Assembly (NCBI GenBank): GCA_030429545.1
Contig: JAUIFF010000001.1
Location: forward strand, 403,599 to 467,598
Direction of reading: 5' to 3'
DNA: 64,000 nt
Source of the DNA: Polyangia bacterium
GTDB lineage: Bacteria > Myxococcota_A > Polyangia > Nannocystales > Nannocystaceae
Part shown: in pieces, positions 8,864-24,714 of the stretch
Position numbering within the stretch: position 1 is the stretch's first letter
Layout of the letters: each line of letters starts with the position of its first letter
The notes under the pieces: generated by a model
Databases searched by the model: none
Seen by the model: only the letters and a program-made list of their open reading frames with translations
What the model was told of the DNA's origin: nothing
Translations under genes and position numbers: made by a program

Positions 8864-9054
8864 GCGTCACGAGTTGACTACTACGCGCCAAGTCGGGTCG
8901 TCTGGCACGCGGGCATTCATTTGTGGATACAACTTTTTGACCGGCGTGGTCGATGGTCGAGCTCATCACGCGGAGAGGTCTTGGTACCGAGTTGTCTAGG
9001 GGTCAGCCCGTTGGGGTCGGTCGTGAGGCACGCGGTCCTCGCTCGCTCACAGAT

Positions 9055-9615
9055 TCACGGGATTTTGCGCAGGCTAGCGCGGTGTGGCCACGAGACGATC
9101 GCGCGACTGCGTAGGCGTTCGAGTATGCGCGGCCCGATGCCGCGAACGTCATCGAGTTCGGCTACGGTGGCAAAGGCCCGCTGCTGGCGAGCTTCGATGA
9201 TACGGCCGGCGAGGGCGGGGCCAATGCCTGGAAAACTAGCGAGCTCGTCGGCACCTGCCTCGTTGAGGTTGACCGGTAGGGCGAGGGCGGCGAGGTCGTC
9301 GGGCGGCATCCGTCGCCACCCTGGTTGTCCGCGGGTCGGATTGTTGTTGTTACAAATAATTTTTGGGACAAGGCTGTCGCCGGGTCGAATCGGTCGCCGG
9401 GGTGCGCCCGGGCAGACTTCGGCGAGTGTCGCAGGGCGCCGCTGGCCGCACACAAGGTTTCCCGCGATCATGACGGCAGACGGGCACTCGACCGGGGAGA
9501 ATGCGACGTTGGAGCCAACTGCCGGAGCTCGCCACAGTCCGACCATGAGCCAGGCAACACCCACGAAAGCGAGTTTGGTGAGGGCTTTGACTTGCCGGTG
9601 TTCGTCTGGGTGCAT
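9055..9615 (-). CDS. comEA: ComEA-like helix-hairpin-helix DNA-binding protein with N-terminal membrane anchor
   Basis: C-terminal VNLNEAGADELASFPGIGPALAGRIIEARQQ...LDDVRGIGPRILERL tandem HhH; TM helix near N-terminus (start at M 9615 preferred over 9681). Confidence 0.7.
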   Translation of the reverse strand: MHPDEHRQVKALTKLAFVGVAWLMVGLWRAPAVGSNVAFSPVECPSAVMIAGNLVCGQRRPATLAEVCPGAPRRPIRPGDSLVPKIICNNNNPTRGQPGWRRMPPDDLAALALPVNLNEAGADELASFPGIGPALAGRIIEARQQRAFATVAELDDVRGIGPRILERLRSRAIVSWPHRASLRKIP

Positions 9616-9733
9616 GGTTCGAATGCGAAAAGCCGAGCCCGTCGATCGGCGAAACGTTGGCGACCCTATAGGCAGGCACAACGTTTACGACCGATGCCAG
9701 GGGCACGGCTGCCATCAGGTATTGGTGATTGGG

Positions 9734-11068
9734 CTAGCTCGCGGCCTGTTGCTCGCCTGCACTTTGGTGCAGGCCAAAGCCCTCGTGCAGGGCACGGACC
9801 GCGAGTTCGCCGTAGCGCTCGTGGACCACCACGGAAACTTTGATCTCGGATGTCGAGACCATTTGGATGTTGATGTTGTCGCGGCCGAGCAGCTCAAAGG
9901 CTTTGGCGGCAACGCCCGCGTGGGTGCGCATGCCGACGCCGACGATCGAGATTTTGCAGATCGCACGGTCGCTGATCAGCTCGCTGGTGCTGCTGATGAG
10001 GTCGAGAGCCTGCAGCCCCTCGATCGAGCGGTCGAGGTCCTGCTCGGGCACGGTAAAGGTGACGTCGGTCGAGCCGTTGCGGCTGGCGTTTTGGATGATC
10101 ATGTCGACCACCACGCCGTCGTTGGCCAGCTTGCCAAAAATCGTGGCGATGCTCCCGGGGATGTCGGCGACGTTGGTCACGGTGATCTTGGCTTCGTTGC
10201 GGTCGAGTGCCACCCCGCGGACGATTGGTGTTTGCAGGTTGATGGCACGACCAGATTGTTGGGGCTGTTCAGACACGATCCAGGTTCCTTCGCCGGTGTG
10301 GAGCGACGAGCGCACATGTACGGGCACGCGGTGTTTCATGGCGATCTCGACGCTGCGGATTTGCAGGACCTTGGCGCCGAGGCTCGAAAGTTCGATCATC
10401 TCTTCGTAGGTGAGGTGGGGCAGCTTTTGTGCCCGCGGCTCGATCCGCGGATCGGTTGTGTAGACCCCGTCGACATCGGTGAGGATTTCACAGGCGTCGG
10501 CCTGCAAAGCAGCGGCGAGGGCCACCGCCGAGGTGTCGGAACCGCCCCGGCCGAGGGTGGTGATGTTGCCCTCGCGGTCGAGCCCCTGAAACCCTGCACA
10601 TACAACGATGTGGCCGGCATCGAGCTCACGGTGGAGCCGCTCGCGGTCGATGGTGGTGATACGCGCGTTGGTAAAGCTGCCGTCGGTCATCATGCCGAGC
10701 TGGTGGCCTACCAGCGAAATGGCCTTGCCGCCGAGCTCCTGAATCGCGATCGCAAGCAGCGAGGCACTCACTTTTTCGCCGGTGCTGACAAGTTGGTCGA
10801 GTTCGCGTTGGTGCGGCCGGTGGCCCACACGCCCACTGACGACATAGGGACCCTTGCCCTCGTCGCTTTGTGTCGTTTGGTCGCCGTGGACCTGGCTTAT
10901 CAGGCGGTTGCTCAGGCTGATGAGCCGGTTGGTTTCGCCGGACATGGCCGACACAACCACGACCAGCCCATGGCCCTGGCGACTGGTGTCGAGGCAGCGT
11001 TTGGCACAGGCATGGATCCGCTCGAGGGTGCCGACCGAGGTGCCTCCGTACTTTTGAACCACAAGCAT
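9734..11068 (-). CDS. lysC: Aspartate kinase (with C-terminal ACT domains)
   Basis: [13 protein letters not shown]...; KFGGTS kinase motif family, 444 aa, two ACT-like regions at C-terminus. Confidence 0.9.
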
Positions 11069-11251
11069 GATGGGGGGCGAAGGTTACCCGGCATCCCGTT
11101 GGTGTAAAGGGCTCGAAGGGCCCGGCGGTGGCGCGTGCTCACATCGCGCGAATGCGATGTGGTCGGTAGTTGCCGCTTTGTTGTGCACACGCGGATGTGT
11201 GCGCGGTTTGTCGGCGACGCGAGAAAAACCACTTCGTCACCGGTCGCAAAC

Positions 11252-12348: not shown

Positions 12349-12631
12349 GACGCTAACTACTTTATGACGAAGCCGTCACGAATGGCAATAGAAAACTGAC
12401 AGTAGGTTGGGGCAAGCGGCCGTGCGAACTGCCACGAGGACATAAGCACACAGGTTGTCGTACATCCACGATGAAGCCTCGTGGTTTTGGTGAGCGGTTT
12501 ACACGTGGTCTGTATCCGGCTACGCGACGTGCTATATCCGTGAGTAAGTGGACGATTTCCCGCTTTTTTGGCTATTGACGTTCGTGACTTCGGAGTCATG
12601 ATTGTTGAGAACTCGAAAAGGAGTTGAGAAC

Positions 12632-13324
12632 ATGCGCTGGAACCTGATGAAAGAAATGTGGCGAAAATTTCGTAGCGGAGGCGCGGTTGCAGACGTCGCG
12701 CTGCTGAAAATCGTTGCCCTCGAACAGCGCCCCAAGAGCAGGGAAGTTCTCGACCACTTAGAGCAGGTGCGTGGCTACATCCCCGAGGCAGACATGCCGG
12801 CGCTGCGCAAACTGCCCGACGGGACGTTTGGCCGCGAGTATGCCCGGTTTTTGGATGCCCAAAACATCGACCCATTTGTCTTTAGCGATGAGCTCAAAGA
12901 GCGGTTTAGCGACGAAACCTTCGCATTTCGGTTTTTGACAACCCACGACCACCACCACGTGTTGGCCGGGTTTGATGCCGGAGCCGCGGGCGAGGCCGGC
13001 GTGCTGGCGTTCAACGTCGCCCAGGGCACATTTGGCTCAAAAGGCATGCTGTGGTTGGCCAAACTGCTCTACCCACTGTTCACTCCGTCGAATGTGTTTC
13101 GCCTGTGGCGAAATGTGCGGGTTGGATTCGCCATGGGCAAGCAGGCTAAGCTGCTGCTGGCCCAAAGGTTGGAAGACCAATACGAGCGTCCGCTGGTCGA
13201 AGTACGGGCCGCGTATGGCATTCCCGAACCGGCGTCTGCCGGCGTTGTCCCGAGCAACAGCTCGTGGATGATCAACCTCGTCTACGGCAGCCGCAAGACC
13301 CCCAAACTGGCACCTGCGTCCTAA
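12632..13324 (+). CDS. Coq4-family protein, paralog B
   Basis: THDHHHVLAGFDAGAAGE motif; AAGGAG Shine-Dalgarno 8 nt before ATG 12632; collinear with paralogs A and C. Confidence 0.7.
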   Translation: MRWNLMKEMWRKFRSGGAVADVALLKIVALEQRPKSREVLDHLEQVRGYIPEADMPALRKLPDGTFGREYARFLDAQNIDPFVFSDELKERFSDETFAFRFLTTHDHHHVLAGFDAGAAGEAGVLAFNVAQGTFGSKGMLWLAKLLYPLFTPSNVFRLWRNVRVGFAMGKQAKLLLAQRLEDQYERPLVEVRAAYGIPEPASAGVVPSNSSWMINLVYGSRKTPKLAPAS

Positions 13325-13367: not shown

Positions 13368-13542
13368 TTGGTTCTTGTGCTCGCATTTGGCCAACATCGA
13401 TACCGAAAATCGTTGCCATTGCTCGGATTTGCTCGTCTGATTCGTCAGACGATTGTGTGAGATCGAATACATTGTGAATCGGCAAACAACTCTTGTCATT
13501 AAAGACTTGGTGGTCATGTTTGTCGTGTCGAAAGGAACACAC

Positions 13543-14220
13543 ATGAACTGGAAACTCTACCTCGATACGATTCGTGCCTACCGCTCAGGTGCGAGCCTAG
13601 GCGATGTCGCACTCATGAAGATCGCCGCGTTTCAGACGCCAAACCCCGAGGTTCGAGACCAGCTCAAGGGCCTGCGCGGCTACTACCCAGAGCTCGACCT
13701 GGCGGCGATGCGCGAGCTTCCCAACGGGACGCTCGGGCGCGAATATGTACGGTTTTTGGATGCCCAGGGGATCGAGCCGTTTGTGTTCAGCGACGAGGTC
13801 AAGGCCCGGTTCGCAAACCGCCCGTTCGCCGTCCGCTACACCGTGACCCACGATTTTCACCACGTGCTGGCGGGGTTCGATGCAGGGCTGGCTGGCGAAG
13901 CCGGTGTTGTCGCGTTCACAGTCGGGCAGGGGAGCTTCTCGGGGAAATGGCTCCTGACGTTGCAACGCTGCATCTACGCCGTGTTTTCACCCAGCCAGAT
14001 CCGCGAGGTCAGCAACAACATGAAAGTTGGGTACCGAATGGGTCGCCAAGCCAAGCTGCTACTCGGCGAGCGCCTCGAAGAACAACTGCACCGCCCGCTC
14101 GCCGATGTCCGCAAGGACCTAGGCATTCCCAACCCCAAGGTCGCCGGGGTGCGGGCGAGCAAGGAAAGCTGGATGATGCGGTTGTTTTATCCGAGTGTGA
14201 AACCAGCGGCGATCGCCTAA
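13543..14220 (+). CDS. Coq4-family protein, paralog C
   Basis: TVTHDFHHVLAGFDAGLAGE motif; AAAGGA SD before ATG 13543; about 60% identical to paralog B. Confidence 0.7.
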   Translation: MNWKLYLDTIRAYRSGASLGDVALMKIAAFQTPNPEVRDQLKGLRGYYPELDLAAMRELPNGTLGREYVRFLDAQGIEPFVFSDEVKARFANRPFAVRYTVTHDFHHVLAGFDAGLAGEAGVVAFTVGQGSFSGKWLLTLQRCIYAVFSPSQIREVSNNMKVGYRMGRQAKLLLGERLEEQLHRPLADVRKDLGIPNPKVAGVRASKESWMMRLFYPSVKPAAIA

Positions 14221-14893: not shown

Positions 14894-17800
14894 CTACTTC
14901 TGTGGCTGGGCGGTACCTGGCTGGATGCCTGGCGAAATCGTTGAGCCACGAAACCCGCTGCTGTTACCCGCTGGCGGTTGTGAACCCGACTGCGTGTTTG
15001 AGCTGGAGTTGTTTGGTGTCGAGGTTCCGGACTGTCCGGTTGAGGCGGCGGGAGGTTGTCCGGAAGTGCCGGCCTGTCCGGAAGTGCCGGCCTGTCCCGA
15101 AGTACCGGCCTGTCCCGAAGTACCGGCCTGTCCCGAAGTACCAGGTTGGGTGCTCGTGGGAGGTTGCCCCGTGGGCGTCCCGGTGCTCGGTTGACCCGTG
15201 GACGTCCCGGCGCCAGACTGCGGTGTTTTTCCGGGGATCTTGAGCCCGGGCAGGGGCCGCGACGGTCCGGGGGCATTGGGCTGGACTGTGGGTTTGGGCG
15301 CACCATTTTTGGGACGCAGCTCCGGGGCCTTCTCGGCCTCTTTGGCCTTGACCTTGGCCTTGACCTTGCGGCCCTTGTAGCGGCGCTTCATCACCGGTTT
15401 AGGTTTGAGCTTGATCCGCCCGCCAAACAGGGAGAAGTAGCGGACGCCGTTTTCGTTGCCGCCACCGATTGCGCCAAACAGTGCCCGCCAGTGCAGGCCG
15501 TCGTTGCCGTCCTCGCCCACGCGGCTCCACCACGCGAGGCCCGGACCGACCACATTGGTCGCCTTGTCGCCGTTTTTGTGGCGCACAAACAGGGCCGGAA
15601 TAATCTGGGTCTCGCGGTTTTCACGGCGGAAGTCCCACCACAGCGGGAACCCGACGGTGCGGTTTTTATCGCCGCGTTCGATGTGCCAAACCAGCGGGAA
15701 CTGGACGAAGTCGAGGTTTTCACCCTTGCGTCGTTGCACATACAACGCCGGGAAAATCGAGGTCCAGGCCGTGTCCTTGGCCTTGTGGTTGTCGCGCAGG
15801 TACAGCGGCAACAGCCAGTGTAGGCGGCGCTCGGCATAACTGTGGCTATGCACAAAGATCGGCGGGATGATGGCGGTGGTGACCTTGTGCGGCTTGCGGA
15901 AGTTCCAAACCAGCAGCGCCGCCTGGAACCACCGGGCCTCCTCTTTGCGCTGGCTGATAAATAGCGGGGGGAGCACGACGTTGGTGCTGCGGTCCTCGAC
16001 CCGATGCCGCTTGCGGTAAAACAGCGGGAACACCAGCGTCTCGCGGTATTTTTTGGTGACTGTGTGGCCAAAAAAGCCGGCGTACCAGGTCAGGCGCTCC
16101 TTGGGCTGGTAGTTGTAGCCGCCGAGCCAGGTGTAGAGCTTGCGCCCGCCCTTGCCGTTGCGATCGGCGTAGTACAGGCCGAGGGCGCTGTGGGTGCGAC
16201 GACCCTGGCCGTCCTTGCCGTACATAAACAGCGGGAACGAACCCCAAAGCGTGTACCTGCAACTCGGGTCGTCCTCTTTGCGGAAGTTACATTTTTGGTA
16301 GCGGAACAGCAGCGGAACAACCCCGGTAAACCGGTAGTTTTTGCGCAGCCTGAAGATGTCGAAGTAAAGCGGCGGCGCAATGCTCATGCGCGTGAAGTTG
16401 TGCAGCCGCTTGACGCTAAACACGAACGGGAGGGCGACCCAGGTGCGCGAACCGTTGGCGCGTTGGCGGTCAAACCAGATCGGCAGGGCCAGGGTGTAGT
16501 GCTCTTTCGACCGCTTTTTCTCGTTGTGGATAATCAGCGGCAGGGCGATAAGCCGCCGGTTTTCGACCGAGTCCTTCCACCAATAAAGCGGCGCGACCCC
16601 GGTGTTGAGTTGGGTACGGCTGAGGCGGTGAAAAAACGGCCCGGCGATGAGCGTGTGGGTGCGCCGGTGTTTGTTGCGGCTGTAAAAAAACGGCAGCCCG
16701 GCATCGACATCGACCCCGCCGGGTTGGCGCTGGCGGAAGTAAAACGGGACCACCGCAAAGTTGCGGCGTGGGTGCTCGCCGTCGACCCGACTGCGCCAGA
16801 TAAGTGGCGTGATCATGTCGAGGTCGTCGCCCGGTGTCCGCCGGCGGATATAAAGCGGTGGGACCACGGTGTGCGTCGCCATCCCGCCCTCGGTTGGCCG
16901 TTTGTCGTGGAACAACAGCGGGGCGACACCAAACCCCTTACGCCCGTCGGCACCCTGTTGCCCATACACCGGCCCGGCGACCCAGGTACGTCCCTTGTCC
17001 GACTTGAGACCGCCGCCTAGGGGGGTGAGGGTCAACACCCGCGACTGCCCGTCGACCGTACGCTGGCGCCGGTAGTACAGCGGGAACAGCATGCTGTCGC
17101 GGGAGTCCTTGCGTTTGACATCCCAGGCGATCAGCCCCGCGCCGAGGGTGCGGTGGTCGGGGCCCTTGGAGCGGACAAACAGCGGTGAGATTGTGGTCGA
17201 CTTGTTGGCTTTGACGTCGGTGACGTGCCCGGTCAACAGCGGCAGCACAAGTGCGTAGCGGTGGTTTTCGTCGCGTCCGCTGACAAACACCGGGGGCAGG
17301 CCCGCGTGCCACCCGGTCGGTTTTCGTTGCAGGTACAACGGCGGGATCGCAAACGTATGCTTCTTGGCCTTTTTGTCGTGGACGTGCCAAAACAGCGGGG
17401 TGATGACCTGGTAGGCACGCTCGTCGTTGCGCCCGGTAAACGTCAACAGTGCAGGTACACCAAACCGCCGCTGGTTGGGGTCGCGGGTGCGGTACAAAAG
17501 CGGCGGGGCAACCAACGTGTCGCGTTTTTTGTCGCGGTTGTTGAAGTGCCAAAACAGCGGGGTGACGACCTGGTACGAAAGTCCGGTTTTGCGTTGGCGG
17601 ACAAACGTGAGGGCCGGGAGGACCGAAAACCCAAACCCGTCCTTAGCCCGGGTACCGCCGGCGATCGGGGTAAACACCCGCATCGAGTCGGGCGTTTTGC
17701 GGGTGAACACCAGGGGAAACAGGACATTGCTGGTGACCTGTTTACGGCGGTCGGAAAACCGCCAAAAGATCGGTGCAAATACAGCATTTTGCTGGCGTGG

Positions 17801-19190
17801 ATCGCTGTGGAGCACCAGCGGCCCGGCGACCGTGGTTTTGCTGCCTTCGAGGCGGTTGCGGGCGTGCCAGACAAGCGGCGTGGCCGACCAAAGGTCGCGG
17901 TCGCGGTTGCTCGACTTAAACGTGAGCAGCGGCGGGATGGCCCAGGCTGAGCCCTTGCGGGCCTTGTCGCTGCGCTTGATAAATAACGGCGTCCACAGCT
18001 CGCGGCGATTGCCAAACTCGTTGGATTGCCAGTGAAAAAACGGGAACAGCGTGTGGTGCTTGAGCCCCTTGACCTTGTCGTAGCCGCCGACATACAGCGG
18101 AATACCGACATCGGTCTTGGTGAGGCCCTTGACCCGGCGCACGAAAAACGGTGCAGCTACAAGATATTTACGGTCGCTGAGCGGGTTGCCGTCTTTGAGG
18201 TCCTTGTTGCCGTACCACACCAATACGCCAGACATCGCCCGCAGGCTGTCGGGGGTTTTTTGGTGGTAGTGAAACGGGCCGACAACCAGGTTTTTGACGT
18301 GGCGGTTACCCCAGGCCCACACCAGCGGAAACTGGCCAAAGGTGTATTGCTCGCCAACCCGCTTGTAGCCCATCAGCAGGGGGATCGAGCCCCAGGCCGA
18401 GGTCCGCTCGCTAAACGAACCCATAAACAGGGCGAGCGGGGCGATGTAGCGGCGCTTTTTCTTGGCCTTGCTGTACCAGCCAAACGTCAGGGAGAGGTCG
18501 GCGTGGAACAGTTTCTCCGGGTGCTCTTTGGTGCCCTTGCGATGGATAAAAAGCGGCGGGAGGGTGAGCGCCCGGGTGCGGTGGGTGTTGTATTCCATGT
18601 CCACCCAAAACGGGGGGACGTTGCGCTTTTTGAGCAGCTCCGGGCGGACGTACTCGGGCTCGGGCGTGGTGCCGTCGGGGATCGGCAGGATGTCGTCGGG
18701 GTCCGTTGGCGAACCCATTGTAGATGCATCTTCATCCTCGTCGGGCTCGGTCTCGCGGGGGACGGCGATCGGTTGGGCCGAGGGCACCGGAATGGTCGGG
18801 CTGGGGCCAGTTGCGGGAATCGGTGTCGCCTCGCTCGGAGGTGCCGGATCGCTGCTCGGGACCGTGCCTGCGCCAGCACGCTCGGGTGCACTGGCATCGG
18901 CCCCGGTGCCGGCATTGGGCCCAGGCTCGCTACCTGAGGCGGTGGGAACTTCGGCGCCGGCAGGTGTTGTGCCGGGTGCATAGAGGTTGGCCCAGGTGTC
19001 GACCGGGCCGTGGTGGGCCAACAGTGACGTACCAAAGTAGTCGGGAGTGGCCGCGAGCGAGGTATCGACCTCGACCGCAAACGCGTGGGCTGTGGCGCTC
19101 CAAAGTGCGAGGCTCACCACCGCGACGAGCGGCAGTGGGCGGCGAGCAAAACTGGGAAGGGAGCGTCTCAGGAGCGTGGATTCCCGGAGT
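14894..19190 (-). CDS. Very large secreted repeat protein (~1,430 aa): ~50 tandem ~19-aa repeats with conserved P-[LIF]-[FLYW] core, C-terminal G/T/S/Q-rich low-complexity tail
   Basis: Track ORF 14894..19519; signal-peptide-like [21 protein letters not shown]|FAVEV near 19100-19190, so the true start is probably an alternative codon near 19190 (uncertain). Repeats such as [19 protein letters not shown] / [19 protein letters not shown]; C-terminus [24 protein letters not shown]. Confidence 0.7.
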
Positions 19191-19460
19191 GCGCACCCGG
19201 GATGGAGGAGGAAGTTGCAGCTGCGATGACCGGAAGTCTTGTGCGCGTCGACACCGATTGCTCGGGAGCGTCCACGGGCCGGTGGGAGATAGCGGACGGG
19301 GGTTTGCAGTGTCAACTGTCGAGATGCCTGGAGTTTTTCGGAATAGACCCGCGACCGGAGTTGTTTTTGTCGGCCTGCGCGAGATGCAAGAAGACACACA
19401 CACAGGTGATTGCTCCTGCGTGATTGACACCTCACAGCCACAGCGCTAAAGCCGTGCATT

Positions 19461-20102
19461 GTGGTTGCAGGATCGAAGCGAACCGAATTGGCTCCGGTCG
19501 ACACGTTGCGAGTCGACATCCCCGCACTGATTGGGCGAGGTCCCGGTCCCTATGAAGTAGATGTCGAGGTTGCCCCGGCGTGGGTGAAACAGGCGTTGGC
19601 GGGTACCGATGCCGAGGTCCAACAACTCGCCCAGCTGCGCGGAGAACTCAGCCTCCAGGGCAAGACAGCCCTGTTTCGCGGCCATTTTACCGCGGTCTTT
19701 GAGGTCCCCTGTGCCCGGTGTTTGGAGGGGGCGGCGGTCGATGGAGGCGGCGAGTTGTGTGTCCACTTTGAGCGCGGCGAGAGCAAGCGCCCAAAACTCG
19801 AAGAGGATGACGAAGAAGAGATCGACACCGGCTCACCCGAGCAATTCACGTTCGACGGGATCACACTCGATCTACGACCCATGCTCGTCGAGCACCTGGT
19901 GATGGCCTACCCGATGCGCGCGTTGTGTGAGCGCGGTGAGGATTGTCGGGGGTTGTGTTCGCAGTGTGGCGCCAACCTCAATTCCCAGGGGGAAGGGGGC
20001 CCGTGCTCAGCCTGTGCCGGGCAACAGGCGGCCCAACCTCCCGAGCCCGCGGGCAATGCCAGTTGGCAAGCTGCCCTGCGCAAGATCCGAGACAAGAGCT
20101 GA
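19461..20102 (+). CDS. yceD: YceD/DUF177 family protein (23S rRNA accumulation protein) preceding rpmF
   Basis: CARCLEG...CSQC / CSAC Cys pairs typical of DUF177; conserved position upstream of rpmF-plsX. Confidence 0.8.
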   Translation: MVAGSKRTELAPVDTLRVDIPALIGRGPGPYEVDVEVAPAWVKQALAGTDAEVQQLAQLRGELSLQGKTALFRGHFTAVFEVPCARCLEGAAVDGGGELCVHFERGESKRPKLEEDDEEEIDTGSPEQFTFDGITLDLRPMLVEHLVMAYPMRALCERGEDCRGLCSQCGANLNSQGEGGPCSACAGQQAAQPPEPAGNASWQAALRKIRDKS

Positions 20103-20283
20103 GATCTCCCGTGTACTTGCGGCCAAGTGGGCGAGTTTTCTCAACTTCCTCGCCCACGGACCAGGCGACCTCGCCGTTGCAGCACTCGTGTTGTGAGACG
20201 TCCCGCAAGCGTCAACGCGCGACCGTCCGGGGCGACGTTGACACGGATACCAGCGGACAGTACTACTGCCGCCCCTACGAGCC

Positions 20284-20469
20284 ATGGCAGTTCCAAAGAA
20301 GAAGAAATCAGCATCCCGCCGCGATATGCGTCGCGCCAACCACGACCGCGTCTCGGCTCCAAACCTCAGCGCCTGCTCCAACTGCGGCGAGCTGATGGTG
20401 AGTCACCGCGTGTGCCCGGCCTGCGGTTACTACCGCGGTCGCCAGGTCATCGCAGTCGCCGAAGACTAA
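20284..20469 (+). CDS. rpmF: 50S ribosomal protein L32
   Basis: [20 protein letters not shown]...[20 protein letters not shown]; 61 aa. Confidence 0.95.
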
Positions 20470-20487
20470 TCACCGAACTTCGAGCCG

Positions 20488-21543
20488 ATGCCACCGGTCA
20501 CCATCGCGGTCGACGCGTTTGGCGGAGACCGATGTCCGCAGACCGAAGTCGCGGCAGCTGTCCAGGCTGCCCGCGAAGGTTTGGGGATCCTCCTCGTCGG
20601 TGACGAAGTCCGAGTCCGTGCCGAACTCGACAAAGTCGGTGCACCTACAACCTCAACCCTGGAAATTGTCCACGCGCCCGACATCATTACGATGGAGGAC
20701 TCGCCGTCGAAGGCAATTCGCCAAAAAACCGAGGCCTCGATGCCGGTGTGCTTTGACCTGGTCAAACAGGGCAGAGCCCAGGCCGTGGTCTCGGCCGGCA
20801 ATTCCGGGGCCATGCTCGCCTGCGGGTTGTTCAAGTACCGCCGCCTCAAGGGCGTCGACCGTCCAGCGATCGTCACCAGCTTTCCCAATGCCAAGGATGC
20901 GGTCGTGCTGCTCGACATGGGTGCCAATGTCGATTGCAAGCCGATCAACTTAGTGCAGTTTGCGGTGATGGGGGCCGTCTACGCCTCGGTTTATCACCGC
21001 AAGTCCAAACCGGTGGTCGGGGTGTTGTCCAACGGCAGCGAAGACGGCAAGGGTAGCGAACTCACACGCGTGGTTCACAACGTGCTTAAGCAAGGTGAAC
21101 CACAGGGGTTTGAGTACGCCGGCTACATCGAGGGCAAGGATATTTTTCGCGGCGAGATCGATGTGGTCGTCACCGACGGATTTACCGGCAATATCGTGCT
21201 GAAAACAGCCGAAGGCACGGCCTCGGCGGTTGCCGGGTTTTTGCGCGAAGCGATCGACGAGGCTCCGGTGGTGAGCAAAGTCGGGGCGCTGCTCATGAAG
21301 CCGGCCTTCGCCGCACTCAAACGCCGGATCGATCCCGACACCTACGGCGGGGCACCCCTGCTCGGGGTCAACGGGATCGCCATGATCTGTCACGGCAGCG
21401 CCAGCGAACGGGCGATCCTCAACGGGATCCGCGGGGCCCATCGGTTTGCTCGCGAGGGCCTCACGCCCGGACTTATCGACGCCCTTTCGCTCAACCGCGA
21501 CCTGGCGACGGCTGCCCGCGAACACGAGTCTGCGGCCCGGTAA
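20488..21543 (+). CDS. plsX: Phosphate acyltransferase PlsX
   Basis: MPPVTIAVDAFGGD..., full-length PlsX architecture, 351 aa. Confidence 0.95.
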   Translation: MPPVTIAVDAFGGDRCPQTEVAAAVQAAREGLGILLVGDEVRVRAELDKVGAPTTSTLEIVHAPDIITMEDSPSKAIRQKTEASMPVCFDLVKQGRAQAVVSAGNSGAMLACGLFKYRRLKGVDRPAIVTSFPNAKDAVVLLDMGANVDCKPINLVQFAVMGAVYASVYHRKSKPVVGVLSNGSEDGKGSELTRVVHNVLKQGEPQGFEYAGYIEGKDIFRGEIDVVVTDGFTGNIVLKTAEGTASAVAGFLREAIDEAPVVSKVGALLMKPAFAALKRRIDPDTYGGAPLLGVNGIAMICHGSASERAILNGIRGAHRFAREGLTPGLIDALSLNRDLATAAREHESAAR

Positions 21544-21644
21544 CGTGTAGATACATCCGCTGCATCCGAGCGGTTCGGCGACGCGAGGTTTACCACCTTC
21601 GCTCGTCCACGGCAGTCGGGAAAATTCCGCTACCCTGCAGCGAG

Positions 21645-22598
21645 ATGCAAGCGAACAGCAAAATCGCGTGGATGTTTCCGGGGCAGGGGAGCCAGCAGGT
21701 CGGGATGGGAAAGGCCCTGTCCGAGACCTATGCAGTTGCCCGTGAGACTTTTGCCGAGGCCGACGAGGCCCTTGGTGAGTCGCTGTCGCAGCTGTGCTTT
21801 GCCGGCGATCCGGCCACGCTGGCGCTGACAGCCAATACCCAACCGGCGATCCTGACCTGTAGTGTGGCCGCGCTGCGTGTGTTGCAGGTACAACGACCGG
21901 ATCTACAACCCCAGGTTTGCTTGGGTCATTCACTCGGGGAGTTTTCGGCACTTGTCGCTGCCGGTGCCCTGGGGTTTGCCGATGCTGTCCGCCTTGTTCG
22001 CCTCCGCGGCCAGGCCATGCAAGAGGCGGTCGCCCCGGGTGTTGGGGCGATGGCAGCGATTTTGCGAGTTTCGGCCGACGACCTCGAAAAGCTGTGTGCC
22101 GAGGCGTCGTCGTCCTCTGAGATGGTGGCGATCGCCAACGAAAATGGTGGTGGCCAACTCGTGGTCGCCGGTCACCAAAAGGCCGTCGAGCGGCTGTGCG
22201 AGGCGGTCAAGGTTGCCAAGGGGCGGGCCATCGCACTCGATGTATCTGCACCGTTTCACTGCTCGCTGATGCAACCGGCCGCCGACCGCCTCGCCCAGGC
22301 CCTCGGCGATATCGAGGTCAGCCCGCTCAAGGTCCCGGTGATCGCCAATGTCGACGCCGAACCAAACGCGGCGCATGAGCGGGTCAAGGAATTGCTTGTT
22401 GCCCAGGTGACCGGCCGCGTGCGTTGGGAAGCTTCGGTTCAAAAAGCCGTTGCGATTGGGGTTACCCACGGGATTGAACTCGGTCACGGCAAGGTGCTCG
22501 CCGGGCTGTGTCGGCGGATCGATCGCAGCCTCAAGGTCACGCCGCTGGGCCAGCCAGCCGACGTGCAAACACTCGAGCAGATTTTTCCGCCGGCCTAG
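21645..22598 (+). CDS. fabD: Malonyl-CoA:ACP transacylase
   Basis: [16 protein letters not shown] and [14 protein letters not shown] active-site Ser motif. Confidence 0.95.
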
Positions 22599-22830
22599 CG
22601 AGCGACGTGGCCGCAACTGCGGTGTTGAGAAGCGAGAAGTACGCCCAGTGCGCGTGCATGTAGCGGTCGCCGAAACTCGCAGAGATATTTGTGTCGGTGC
22701 GACGCGAGAATCACCACGCTCTACACAACTGCTAATTCCGTTTCGATCCTGCAATTCAGGACATACCTGATTGCCGCCTGCGGAAATCCCCGGCAGACAA
22801 CTTTATAAAGCTCACGTCGGGAGGGCACCT

Positions 22831-22848
22831 CAGTGCACGCGTGCACTG
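22831..22848. promoter_or_regulatory. Perfect 18-bp palindrome CAGTGCACGCGTGCACTG in the fabD-acpP spacer
   Basis: Seen directly; self-complementary; lies ~310 bp upstream of acpP in a 557 bp non-coding gap. Confidence 0.3.
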
Positions 22849-23156
22849 GCATGCACGGATTTTTTTGCCGCGCTACAAAATCGGTGGAACAGCCACACAG
22901 TTGCCACAAGCGGCAGGTTCGGTGTCGTTCGACATCGGCGTGTGGCGATGGTGAGAAGCGGGTTTTGTGCACGCCGAATGCCCGTGTTCGATCGCAAGGT
23001 CCAATCCCGCGAGCTGTCGCTCCGATCTCACCGTGACCTAGCGGCAACCGCCAACCGTTCCCCCGTCGCCATCGATATGCTATTGGACTGCCCGCTGCGA
23101 GAGGCAGTGTTGTGAGGCCCGCCGCCTTCGGAAGGTGGGGAGGAGAGCAGCCAATC

Positions 23157-23396
23157 ATGTCGACCAACGAAGAAGTAAGAGAGATCATCGCCGAGCAACT
23201 CGACGTCTCGGTTGAAGATGTGACCAAGGACAAATCGTTTACCGACGACCTCGGAGCCGACTCGTTGGCCATTGTCGAGCTGGTCCTGGCTTTCGAAGAG
23301 AAGTTCGATTTCAAGATTCCCGACGACGAAGTCGACAAGCTTCGCACCGTCGGCGACGCGTACAAGTACATCGAAGAACACCGCAAAGACCAATAG
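23157..23396 (+). CDS. acpP: Acyl carrier protein
   Basis: MSTNEEVREIIAEQLDV...DLGADSLAIVELV (phosphopantetheine Ser in DSL); GGAGGAGAG SD upstream of ATG 23157. Confidence 0.95.
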   Translation: MSTNEEVREIIAEQLDVSVEDVTKDKSFTDDLGADSLAIVELVLAFEEKFDFKIPDDEVDKLRTVGDAYKYIEEHRKDQ

Positions 23397-23469
23397 GTCC
23401 CCGCGGCGTCCGTGCCACAATCTCGATATTGTGGCCCCAGTTCTCCCGCAAAAAGCGTGAGGAGACCCA

Positions 23470-24714
23470 ATGTCATCTCGAAGAGTTGTCGTCACGGGCC
23501 TCGGTCTGGTCACCCCACTCGGGGTCGGCACGGACGCAACCTGGAAGAGCCTCCAAGCAGGTTCCTCCGGGATCGGTCCAATCACCCAATTTGATGCCAC
23601 CGACTTTCCGGCCAAAATCGCCGGAGAGGTCGGTGACTTTTATCCGTCTCCGTGGCTGGGTAAACGCGAGCTCCGGCAGATGGACCGGTTTATCCAGTTT
23701 GGGGTCGCCGCCGCGGCAATGGCCTGCGAGGAGGCCGGGATCGTCGAAGGTAGTGTCGAGGCCGAGCGCTTTGGCGTCTACGTCGGTGCCGGTATGGGTG
23801 GCCTTTCGATGATCGAAAAAACGGTCCTCGATATCGAGACCAAGGGGCCGCGACGGGCCGTGAGTCCGTATTTTGTCCCGGCGATCATCATCAACCTGGC
23901 CCCCGGTCAAATTGCGATTCGCCACAACTGTAAGGGGCCAAATCTCTCGCATGTCTCGGCGTGTTCGACAGGTGCCCACTCGGTCGGCGAGGCGTTTCGC
24001 GTGATCGCCCGCGGGGATGCCGATGTCATGATCGCCGGTGGCACCGAATCGGTTGTCAACAAGGCGGCGATCGGTGGGTTTTGTGCGGCACGTGCCCTGT
24101 CCAATCGCAACGACGAGCCGACCAAGGCATCTCGCCCGTTCGACCGCGACCGCGATGGTTTTGTGTTGAGCGAGGGGGCGGGGCTGTTGGTACTCGAAGA
24201 GCTCGAGCACGCCCGCGCCCGCGGTGCCACGATCTTGGCCGAGGTCGCCGGCTACGGGCTCAACTGCGATGCCCACCACATGACCTCGCCCTCCGTCGGT
24301 GGAGAAGGTGCGAGCCGGTGTATGCGACTGGCCCTGGCGGATGCCGGGGTGGCCCCCGAGGCGGTCGGCTATCTCAACGCCCACGGCACCTCGACGGTTG
24401 CAGATACAATCGAAACCCTGGCCATCAAAAATGTGTTTGGCAAGCACGCCCACAACGGGTTGGCAGTGTCGTCGACCAAGTCGATGCATGGGCACCTATT
24501 GGGCGCCGCCGGCGGGCTCGAAGCCGCGATCGCAGTGCTTGCCCTGCATCACGCAGTGTTGCCGCCCACCATCAATCTCGACAATCCCGACGAGGGTTGC
24601 GACCTCGACTACGTGCCCCACACCGCACGCAGCCAACAGGTTGAATATGCAATGTCCAACAGCTTCGGGTTTGGTGGCACCAACGCAACCCTGCTGTTTC
24701 GGAGCGCACCATGA
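23470..24714 (+). CDS. fabF: 3-oxoacyl-ACP synthase II
   Basis: [15 protein letters not shown]; active-site Cys in SACSTGAHS; C-terminal [11 protein letters not shown] / [11 protein letters not shown] His-His motifs; 414 aa. Confidence 0.95.

Follow-up and report, generated by a model that had tools for sequence, protein, structure and literature searches.

A very probably exported protein of about 1,408 amino acids (aa), encoded on the minus strand of a 64,000-nucleotide stretch from a Polyangia bacterium (Nannocystaceae; assembly GCA_030429545.1, contig JAUIFF010000001.1, positions 403,599 to 467,598; hereafter the window), was found to belong to a large, unnamed superfamily with a new, unannotated repeat of 17–19 residues centred on a proline. 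The most probable coding sequence runs from the GTG at 19120 to the stop codon at 14894-14896. Judging from the structure models, the repeats probably fold as hairpins of a single-layer antiparallel beta-sheet of unprecedented length, and export, which we consider very probable, is suggested by a leader, an AXA site and a pair of cysteine residues. The overall reading, in which an exported envelope protein of this hairpin-repeat superfamily would act as a ribbon-like scaffold or tether, is offered with belief and doubt almost in balance and doubt slightly ahead, and the scaffold role taken by itself is more tentative.

AlphaFold2 (AF2) models of the repeat body (aa 290–1343, 121-sequence alignment) were all-beta, with 114 strands mostly of 5–6 residues, a mean predicted local distance difference test score (pLDDT) of 87.4 and a predicted template modelling score (pTM) of 0.41, and a segment of 192 aa (aa 450–641, 60-sequence alignment) reached a mean pLDDT of 93.9 and a pTM of 0.77. 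Mapping of the strands onto the sequence gave one hairpin per unit, in which strand A begins with aromatic residues after the x-P-L turn, a short polar turn follows, and strand B ends in aliphatic residues that run into the next x-P-L turn. Foldseek searches against the PDB returned only meander matches with template modelling (TM) scores of 0.12 or below, which included the ApoB100 belt, teneurin YD shells, propellers and OspA. In the structure comparison, scores of 11.2 / 12.7 were obtained for the CPAP TCP10 domain, 10.7 / 11.2 for the SAS-4 TCP domain, 9.9 / 11.3 for TbMORN1, 7.8 / 10.0 for junctophilin-2 and 9.6–9.8 / 9.1–9.5 for OspA, all of which are single-layer antiparallel sheets, with barrels scoring 7–9 and a teneurin-like protein 7.3. 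By analogy with the TCP and MORN sheets, about 116 strands at 0.48 nm each would make a twisted ribbon of about 50 nm by about 2 nm.

The periodicity of the body is evident at the protein level. Autocorrelation (BLOSUM62, aa 290–1343) peaked at lags of 17–19 residues (z 7.3–9.1 against 500 shuffles), with harmonics at 35–37, 54–55 and 70–73 and significant troughs between them. The regular expression P-[LIVFA]-[LIVFYWM] located 46 motifs between aa 303 and 1313, mostly spaced by 16–21 residues, and an iterated hidden Markov model of the unit found 45 copies with the consensus A-P-P-L-F-W-R-R-R-R-K-G-E-R. The original prediction of a giant repeat protein is borne out by this periodicity and by colinear orthologs; its array of about 50 units of about 19 residues also stands, as 45 canonical units and about 57 hairpins of 17–19 residues, while the length of about 1,200 aa given for the array has to be reduced to about 1,083 aa. 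The only tandem repeat at the DNA level within the gene is the GTSGQA stretch near its 3' end, and the absence of such repeats from the body marks it as a protein repeat that is old and has diverged, as opposed to an assembly that has collapsed.

The orthologs proved to be colinear. The homolog search with aa 290–1343 as the query returned 281 proteins, with E=0 for full-length homologs, and the best 115 of them, all labelled 'hypothetical protein', covered 98–100% of the query at 44–63% identity and were colinear with it, which indicates that repeat number and register are frozen. Invariant alignment columns showed that individual hairpins carry conserved signatures of their own. The distribution of the orthologs was surveyed by a scan of species-representative genomes, which gave 60 loci with a best identity of 63%, mainly in Nannocystales: Nannocystis exedens, N. 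pusilla, N. punicea, N. radixulma and N. bainbridge, with complete Nannocystis chromosomes among the 60 genomes; Enhygromyxa; Plesiocystis pacifica; Paraliomyxa miuraensis; many metagenome-assembled genomes (MAGs) of Nannocystaceae and Nannocystales; and two Polyangia MAGs at 26% identity. No second member of the family was found within the 64-kb window. The gene lies divergently to a housekeeping cluster on the plus strand (19461–24714; yceD 19461–20102, rpmF 20284–20469, plsX 20488–21543, fabD 21645–22598 and fabF 23470–24714, assigned by Pfam matches), and the divergent placement at yceD-rpmF-plsX-fabD, already pointed out in the original prediction, is retained wherever the upstream sequence suffices, at 51 of 51 ortholog loci. 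The downstream side of the gene is not conserved among these loci. From these comparisons the gene behaves as a single-copy, position-frozen core gene within Nannocystales; the yceD–fabF cluster is regarded here as genomic context only.

Beyond the orthologs, a profile built from a subset of 31 shorter orthologs was searched against 1.84 billion cluster representatives (50% identity) and matched 831 clusters at E≤1e-3, 528 at E≤1e-10 and 226 at E≤1e-30. About six of these clusters were full-length, one-to-one matches, and the rest were proteins of 900–2000 aa matched in 3–15 stretches, representing the same unit in other registers. The unit of the distant relatives reads h-F-P-L-F/Y-W-x-x-K and recurs most often every 17 residues, and most of these proteins carry evident signal peptides, some of them together with cysteine-rich N-terminal modules. 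Net charge among the superfamily members spans −141 to +200. One branch belongs to Bacteroidota and has Lys/Arg-rich C-terminal tails, and the named members all come from diderm phyla. The C-terminal endings are conserved but distinct by branch (P0155, P0169, P0172, P0178, P0186 / P0156, P0158, P0166, P0175, P0182, P0187 / P0140, P0274, P0275, P0278). One ending type, ...Y.F.LLGG.FG.DH........Q.LWIPF, resembles the beta-signal of outer-membrane proteins (OMPs) and occurs in members that are net acidic; another reads ...KWQ.L.GL.G.E......RWRVFYVWTDPS; the Bacteroidota ending is ...FYEEER.FW.IR.RSNY... followed by a Lys-rich stretch; and the 32-residue terminal motif of the window protein looks like an equivalent capping motif. 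In the paralog-type members P0145, P0147, P0162, P0163, P0167 and P0190 a short cysteine-rich module, such as SCRSDDECGSGTYCDGGACAR, is placed just past the signal peptide, and the window protein has no such module.

Curated databases were nearly silent on the family. Pfam scans (cut-offs E≤1 for the whole protein and E≤10 for segments) matched no family, whether the query was the whole protein, one of three segments, any of four orthologs or any of six distant relatives, in agreement with the earlier view that the repeat is not WD40, Kelch, RHS/YD, MORN or a pentapeptide repeat. PDB searches by sequence, with single sequences and with profiles, gave noise only (PhaZ7 at E 0.28 and low-complexity MSP1). 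The only curated match was the NCBIfam model NF047486 (LA_1737_Cterm), which was sub-threshold for aa 591–687 of the window protein (32.9 bits against a cut-off of 60, E 5e-8); P0140 of the Bacteroidota branch passed the cut-off with 64 bits, and P0131 and P0169 scored 36–39 bits. Cluster look-ups, and a search for homologs in which the LA_1737-like C-terminus of P0140 was the query, retrieved only entries named 'hypothetical protein' and none from Leptospira, and literature searches found nothing relevant under 'LA_1737' and nothing on this family under single-layer beta-sheet repeats in bacteria. The NCBIfam model is the single source of a putative tie to the Leptospira LA_1737 family. Functional information is lacking from the model itself, which describes a C-terminal domain of 158 aa in a Leptospira subfamily, and the window protein is not a member. 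Only one of the 120 listed orthologs, P0094, has a precomputed Pfam accession, PF27651, for which a literature search gave nothing on this family.

Close architectural parallels exist among known proteins. Within the TCP domain, about 20 strands form a sheet that has no hydrophobic core, exposes both faces to solvent and twists by about 13 degrees per strand; a proline-rich peptide is held along one edge against aromatic residues, and its authors regarded the domain as one without parallel among natural proteins (PMC3776556). According to the models, the TCP domains of CPAP and SAS-4 (G-box, Tcp10_C; 4bxp, 4by2) share with the window protein a free-standing, single-layer antiparallel hairpin meander without a hydrophobic core. 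They differ from it in having about 20 strands against about 116, and in being eukaryotic and cytoplasmic (centriolar), whereas the window protein is bacterial and probably exported; sequence identity is 5–9%, neither the Tcp10_C (PF07202) model nor a profile gave a match, and TCP offers no counterpart to either the P-L-F/W unit or the basic charge. The MORN unit is a hairpin of two 6-residue strands (PMC7725318), and MORN arrays (TbMORN1 6t4r, junctophilin-2 7rxe, MORN3/4) appear to share with the modelled body two strands of about 6 residues per hairpin and an elongated single-layer sheet. The MORN unit has 23 residues with GxG/YxGxW, whereas the unit here has 17–19 residues around an invariant proline, and the array is about 3–7 times longer than known MORN arrays. 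No match to MORN (PF02493) was obtained with the protein (E≤1) or its three segments (E≤10), and the ortholog profile, searched against PDB sequences at E≤10, retrieved no MORN chain; the repeat is thus not MORN by sequence, though its predicted architecture is MORN/TCP-like. The central sheet of OspA, also known from engineered PSAM variants (6kk9, 8xwg), is short and capped at both ends by globular domains (PMC3776556), and OspA, unlike the window protein, is no repeat family. The YD/RHS shells of teneurins and Tc toxins and the ApoB100 beta-belt are likewise very long antiparallel hairpin arrays, matched by Foldseek over the whole query length at E 1e-8 to 1e-10, but with TM scores of at most 0.12; the window protein has no YD motif or RHS Pfam match, and ApoB sheets are amphipathic by face, whereas the window ribbon is polarised by edge.

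This edge polarity emerged from the position-specific composition of 1,794 units taken from the window protein and its orthologs. A contiguous hydrophobic and aromatic block extends from −4 to +3 around the invariant proline (h-h-h-x-P-L-F/Y-W), with 0–3% charged and 55–100% hydrophobic residues at positions −3 to +3, followed by polar or basic residues at positions +4 to +12, and no i/i+2 alternation was present. Such a contiguous block without alternation indicates a ribbon that is polarised by edge and not by face; in the models, one edge would be a greasy proline/aromatic stripe at the turns between hairpins and the other a cationic fringe. Distant relatives, the Bacteroidota branch among them, showed this edge pattern as well. 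The body charge ranges from +52 to +113 across all 121 aligned sequences, and in the eleven tabulated orthologs the N-terminal linker is acidic (−2 to −29) and the C-terminal tail basic (+9 to +21).

Along the protein (residues numbered in the maximal reading frame described below), five regions were distinguished, all on the minus strand. A hydrophobic, signal-peptide-like leader (19079–19120), read from the sequence as (M) plus 12 residues with an AHA|FA cleavage motif, has equivalents at the N-termini of orthologs, and a start further upstream would add 16 more residues to it. It is followed by an acidic low-complexity linker rich in Pro, Thr and Ala (aa 148–294, 18638–19078; 19% Pro, net charge −21) and by the beta-hairpin repeat body (aa 295–1377, about 1,083 aa, 15389–18637; net charge +101), which contains the 45 canonical P-L-F/W units and about 57 hairpins and ends in a conserved terminal motif (aa 1344–1377) outside the modelled range. 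A Lys/Arg-rich segment of 23 residues (15320–15388, net charge +8) leads into a low-complexity tail of Pro, Thr, Ser, Gly and Gln (14897–15319), which in translation holds five copies of GTSGQA and ends in ...AQPQK. The leader, acidic proline-rich linker, K-rich stretch and GTSGQA tail named in the original prediction are therefore all present in sequence and composition. The GTSGQA stretch is encoded by an 18-bp tandem repeat of 4.8 copies (15057–15142, 97% matches, Tandem Repeats Finder), the length of which is likely to vary by slippage. Among orthologs the tails vary widely in sequence and length.

The only two cysteine residues of the body form a putative loop, C1077–C1087 (16259–16291). 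Of the 121 aligned sequences, 92 have both residues, 29 have neither, and none has a single one; this two-or-none pattern points to a disulfide, which is probably formed between C1077 and C1087, and thereby to an oxidising, extracytoplasmic location. Together with the h-region and AHA|FA motif of the leader, the co-varying pair makes the secretion assumed earlier very probable as far as export is concerned, and paralogs with clear signal peptides and cysteine-rich N-terminal modules count in the same direction.

The start of the gene had to be corrected. The minus-strand open reading frame (ORF) extends from 14894 to 19519, with a maximum of 1,541 aa according to the ORF list and translation, and the gene end at 19190 given originally does not coincide with a start codon. 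A block of 57 nt with promoter-like and leader features (19261–19317, minus strand; AGTTGACACTGCAAACCCCCGTCCGCTATCTCCCACCGGCCCGTGGACGCTCCCGAG) was recognised by local alignment to ortholog loci L003 and L016. It contains TTGACA at 19315–19310, a spacer of 18 nt and TATCTC at 19291–19286, and it was found in 17 of the 60 ortholog loci, always on the gene strand and upstream of the body, without any match on the reverse strand. Its consensus is GTTGACAC.GCAAA...GCTAT..CC...CGGCC.GTG...GC..C.GAG (L003 5363, L016 5384, L057 5432, L010 5327 and 13 other loci). Conservation reaches about 30 nt beyond the −10-like element, which suggests an operator or an element of the 5' untranslated region; a generic promoter and terminator scan did not report the block at 19261–19317, and no Rfam family matched this leader block.

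The 'TTG' at 19315 belongs to TTGACA, read as a −35 hexamer, and is therefore not counted as a start codon, and since the block in orthologs starts right after an in-frame stop and ahead of any usable start, it appears to be conserved as DNA and not as peptide. No in-frame ATG, GTG or TTG lies between 19315 and 19120, and the GTG codons at 19120 and 19117 are the sole canonical in-frame starts 3' of the block and of the transcription start that it implies (about 19279). The block thus implies that the real start is the GTG at 19120, not 19190 or 19519. Annotated orthologs likewise begin directly at the hydrophobic region, for example with MLTVALLLAPLWALG... and MVAILVVGLVTPTIADA..., and with this start the gap to yceD (19461) is 340 nt, compared with 343 nt in Enhygromyxa salina. 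The ATG at 19519 was also considered as a start through an apparently conserved N-terminal peptide (MSTRNVSTGANSVRF against MSARPVAAPESTVRL in L003 and L016) and was rejected, as the block follows an in-frame stop in the orthologs. Upstream of the GTG the frame stays open for 133 codons (19121–19519, minus strand), a stretch that overlaps the start of the yceD ORF (19461) head to head and holds the promoter-like block. This extension is probably untranslated, and mechanical ORF callers, following the open frame, would extend the gene too far.

Several other accounts of the repeat array itself were weighed against the free-standing sheet. The beta-solenoid or propeller-like fold of the original prediction would agree with a regular, short-period, all-beta composition, and DDB1, IFT-A and LRP2 appear among the Foldseek matches; their TM scores are, however, no higher than 0.12, the sub-periods of 5, 6 and 9 residues that pentapeptide, hexapeptide (LbH) or RTX beta-roll solenoids would show are absent (autocorrelation negative at these lags, z −3.0 to −5.9), and peaks of similar height at 18, 36, 54 and 72 leave no separate blade-sized (four-strand) period. 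With no WD40, Kelch or pentapeptide matches in Pfam, with antiparallel sheets as structural neighbours and with AF2 models that are antiparallel hairpin meanders, a solenoid or a chain of propellers is considered very improbable. Equally improbable is an array that closes into a container or pore, whether as a giant beta-barrel of the outer membrane or as a shell of the YD/RHS kind, although the teneurin YD shell was matched over the full length by Foldseek (E ~1e-8) and some distant members end in ...LWIPF like an OMP C-terminal signal, for strands of 5–6 residues are too short to span a membrane, those of an outer-membrane barrel having at least 8–10, the hydrophobic residues are contiguous and not alternating, the C-terminus is a long low-complexity tail without an aromatic beta-signal, and RHS/YD matches to Pfam are lacking. 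A repeat that was mis-assembled or collapsed, or an ORF that arose by chance, could be suspected in GC-rich DNA, which gives long spurious ORFs and of which the 19121–19519 extension seems to be an example; for the body, the probability of such an artefact is practically negligible, as it holds no DNA-level tandem repeats and 60 genomes, complete Nannocystis chromosomes among them, carry colinear orthologs of full length. A known Pfam repeat family and a collapsed repeat, the two outcomes that would have spoken against the original prediction, were accordingly not encountered: the Pfam scans are empty, the body is non-repetitive as DNA and the orthologs are colinear.

As to function, the mechanism that we propose tentatively would begin with the leader, followed by an acidic, proline-rich spacer of about 150 aa and about 57 units of 17–19 residues. 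Each unit would form one hairpin of two 5–6-residue strands with turns of 2–4 residues, and hydrogen bonding between adjacent hairpins would produce one continuous, free-standing sheet of about 116 strands. In the envelope, its probable location, this sheet would provide a position-specific scaffold or tether of considerable length. The cationic ribbon may bind anionic surfaces such as phospholipid or lipopolysaccharide head groups, peptidoglycan or acidic polysaccharide, and the aromatic edge might serve for packing or ligand binding, as in the grip of the CPAP TCP domain on a polyproline peptide. A number of observations weigh against this proposal or its foundations. The whole-body pTM is only 0.41, repeats are a case in which AF2 may show too much confidence, and alignment depth is low (60–121 sequences). 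The leader has no charged n-region with the GTG start at 19120. Some superfamily members are strongly acidic, with net charges down to −141, so that polyanion binding cannot be a superfamily-wide function, and liposome binding was not seen with TbMORN1, a close analogue in structure (PMC7725318). The neighbourhoods of L063, L064, L065 and the P0140 contig share no common partner genes and gave no functional clue, and no superfamily member has a named function, the sources all giving 'hypothetical protein'.

Two rival roles start from the same ribbon. An extracellular matrix or surface fibre, secreted past the outer membrane and binding acidic exopolysaccharide, extracellular DNA, prey or substrate surfaces, with the low-complexity tails as flexible, possibly glycosylated spacers, would account for the very high positive charge, for aromatic residues presented once per hairpin (about every 1 nm, as inferred from strand spacing) and for the mucin-like P/T/S/G/Q tails; paralogs of Myxococcota type also carry cysteine-rich N-terminal modules, and modules of this kind are typical of extracellular proteins. 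The fibre is nevertheless judged unlikely, because Pfam and NCBIfam scans found no sorting domains, no lipobox cysteine is present, and a single-copy core gene kept in a housekeeping neighbourhood across the order is more what a basic function in the envelope would lead one to expect than what an accessory adhesin would. A step less probable than the fibre is a membrane-edge belt, in which the proline/aromatic edge (about 1 nm deep) would sit in one leaflet of the inner or outer membrane or around a lipid body, with the Arg/Lys belt on the head groups, and would fence, shape or shuttle lipid like an apolipoprotein belt in connection with the neighbouring plsX–fab genes of lipid synthesis. The succession of hydrophobic block, aromatic residues and basic positions does recall an interfacial aromatic girdle with a positive belt, the greasy edge is universal in the superfamily, unlike net charge, the top Foldseek match is the ApoB100 beta-belt (E 1e-10), the yceD-rpmF-plsX-fabD synteny holds at 51 of 51 loci, and the named members are all diderm. 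Set against this, the ApoB100 TM score is only 0.09, both faces of the ribbon are alike, without i/i+2 alternation, whereas ApoB sheets are amphipathic by face, and a twisted single-layer ribbon, going by the 13 degrees per strand of TCP, could not hold one edge in a flat membrane throughout; moreover, the synteny is lost in distant relatives and may be inherited gene order, and the liposome result for the MORN analogue (PMC7725318) counts here as well. The bolder form of the belt, about 50 nm long, with its proline/aromatic edge embedding in or wrapping envelope lipid so as to fence or shape a membrane or carry lipid between membranes, and with the superfamily as an unrecognised class of envelope architecture, is slightly more doubtful still.

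The single-layer hairpin-repeat meander as such is a known type, represented by MORN and TCP; new are the sequence family, the proline-centred unit of 17–19 residues, the edge polarity and a predicted number of strands above 110 against 20–30, and no description of these was found in Pfam, in the PDB or in the literature searched. Beta-sheets of a single layer that stand free are rare, and a natural chain predicted to have more than 110 strands would test the stability of core-less sheets and would offer a natural template for nanometre-scale protein ribbons. The family is uniformly 'hypothetical' and absent from Pfam, and it probably marks an unstudied component of the diderm envelope. The orthologs in cultured strains, namely Nannocystis exedens DSM 71, N. 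pusilla, Enhygromyxa salina with the ortholog DB30_01706 and Plesiocystis pacifica, make these predictions directly testable.

Two further observations concern the plus strand of the window beyond the stop codon of the giant gene. An ORF of 728 aa (8921–11107) has no Pfam match, and homologs of it (38–51% identity) lie downstream of the giant gene in L003, L007 and L016, which are closer relatives, and not elsewhere. Coq4 is a family of ubiquinone biosynthesis that is best known from eukaryotic coenzyme Q synthesis, and two adjacent ORFs of the window (12602–13324 and 13453–14220) both match it in Pfam, with E 1e-13 and 9e-15, respectively, forming a tandem pair.

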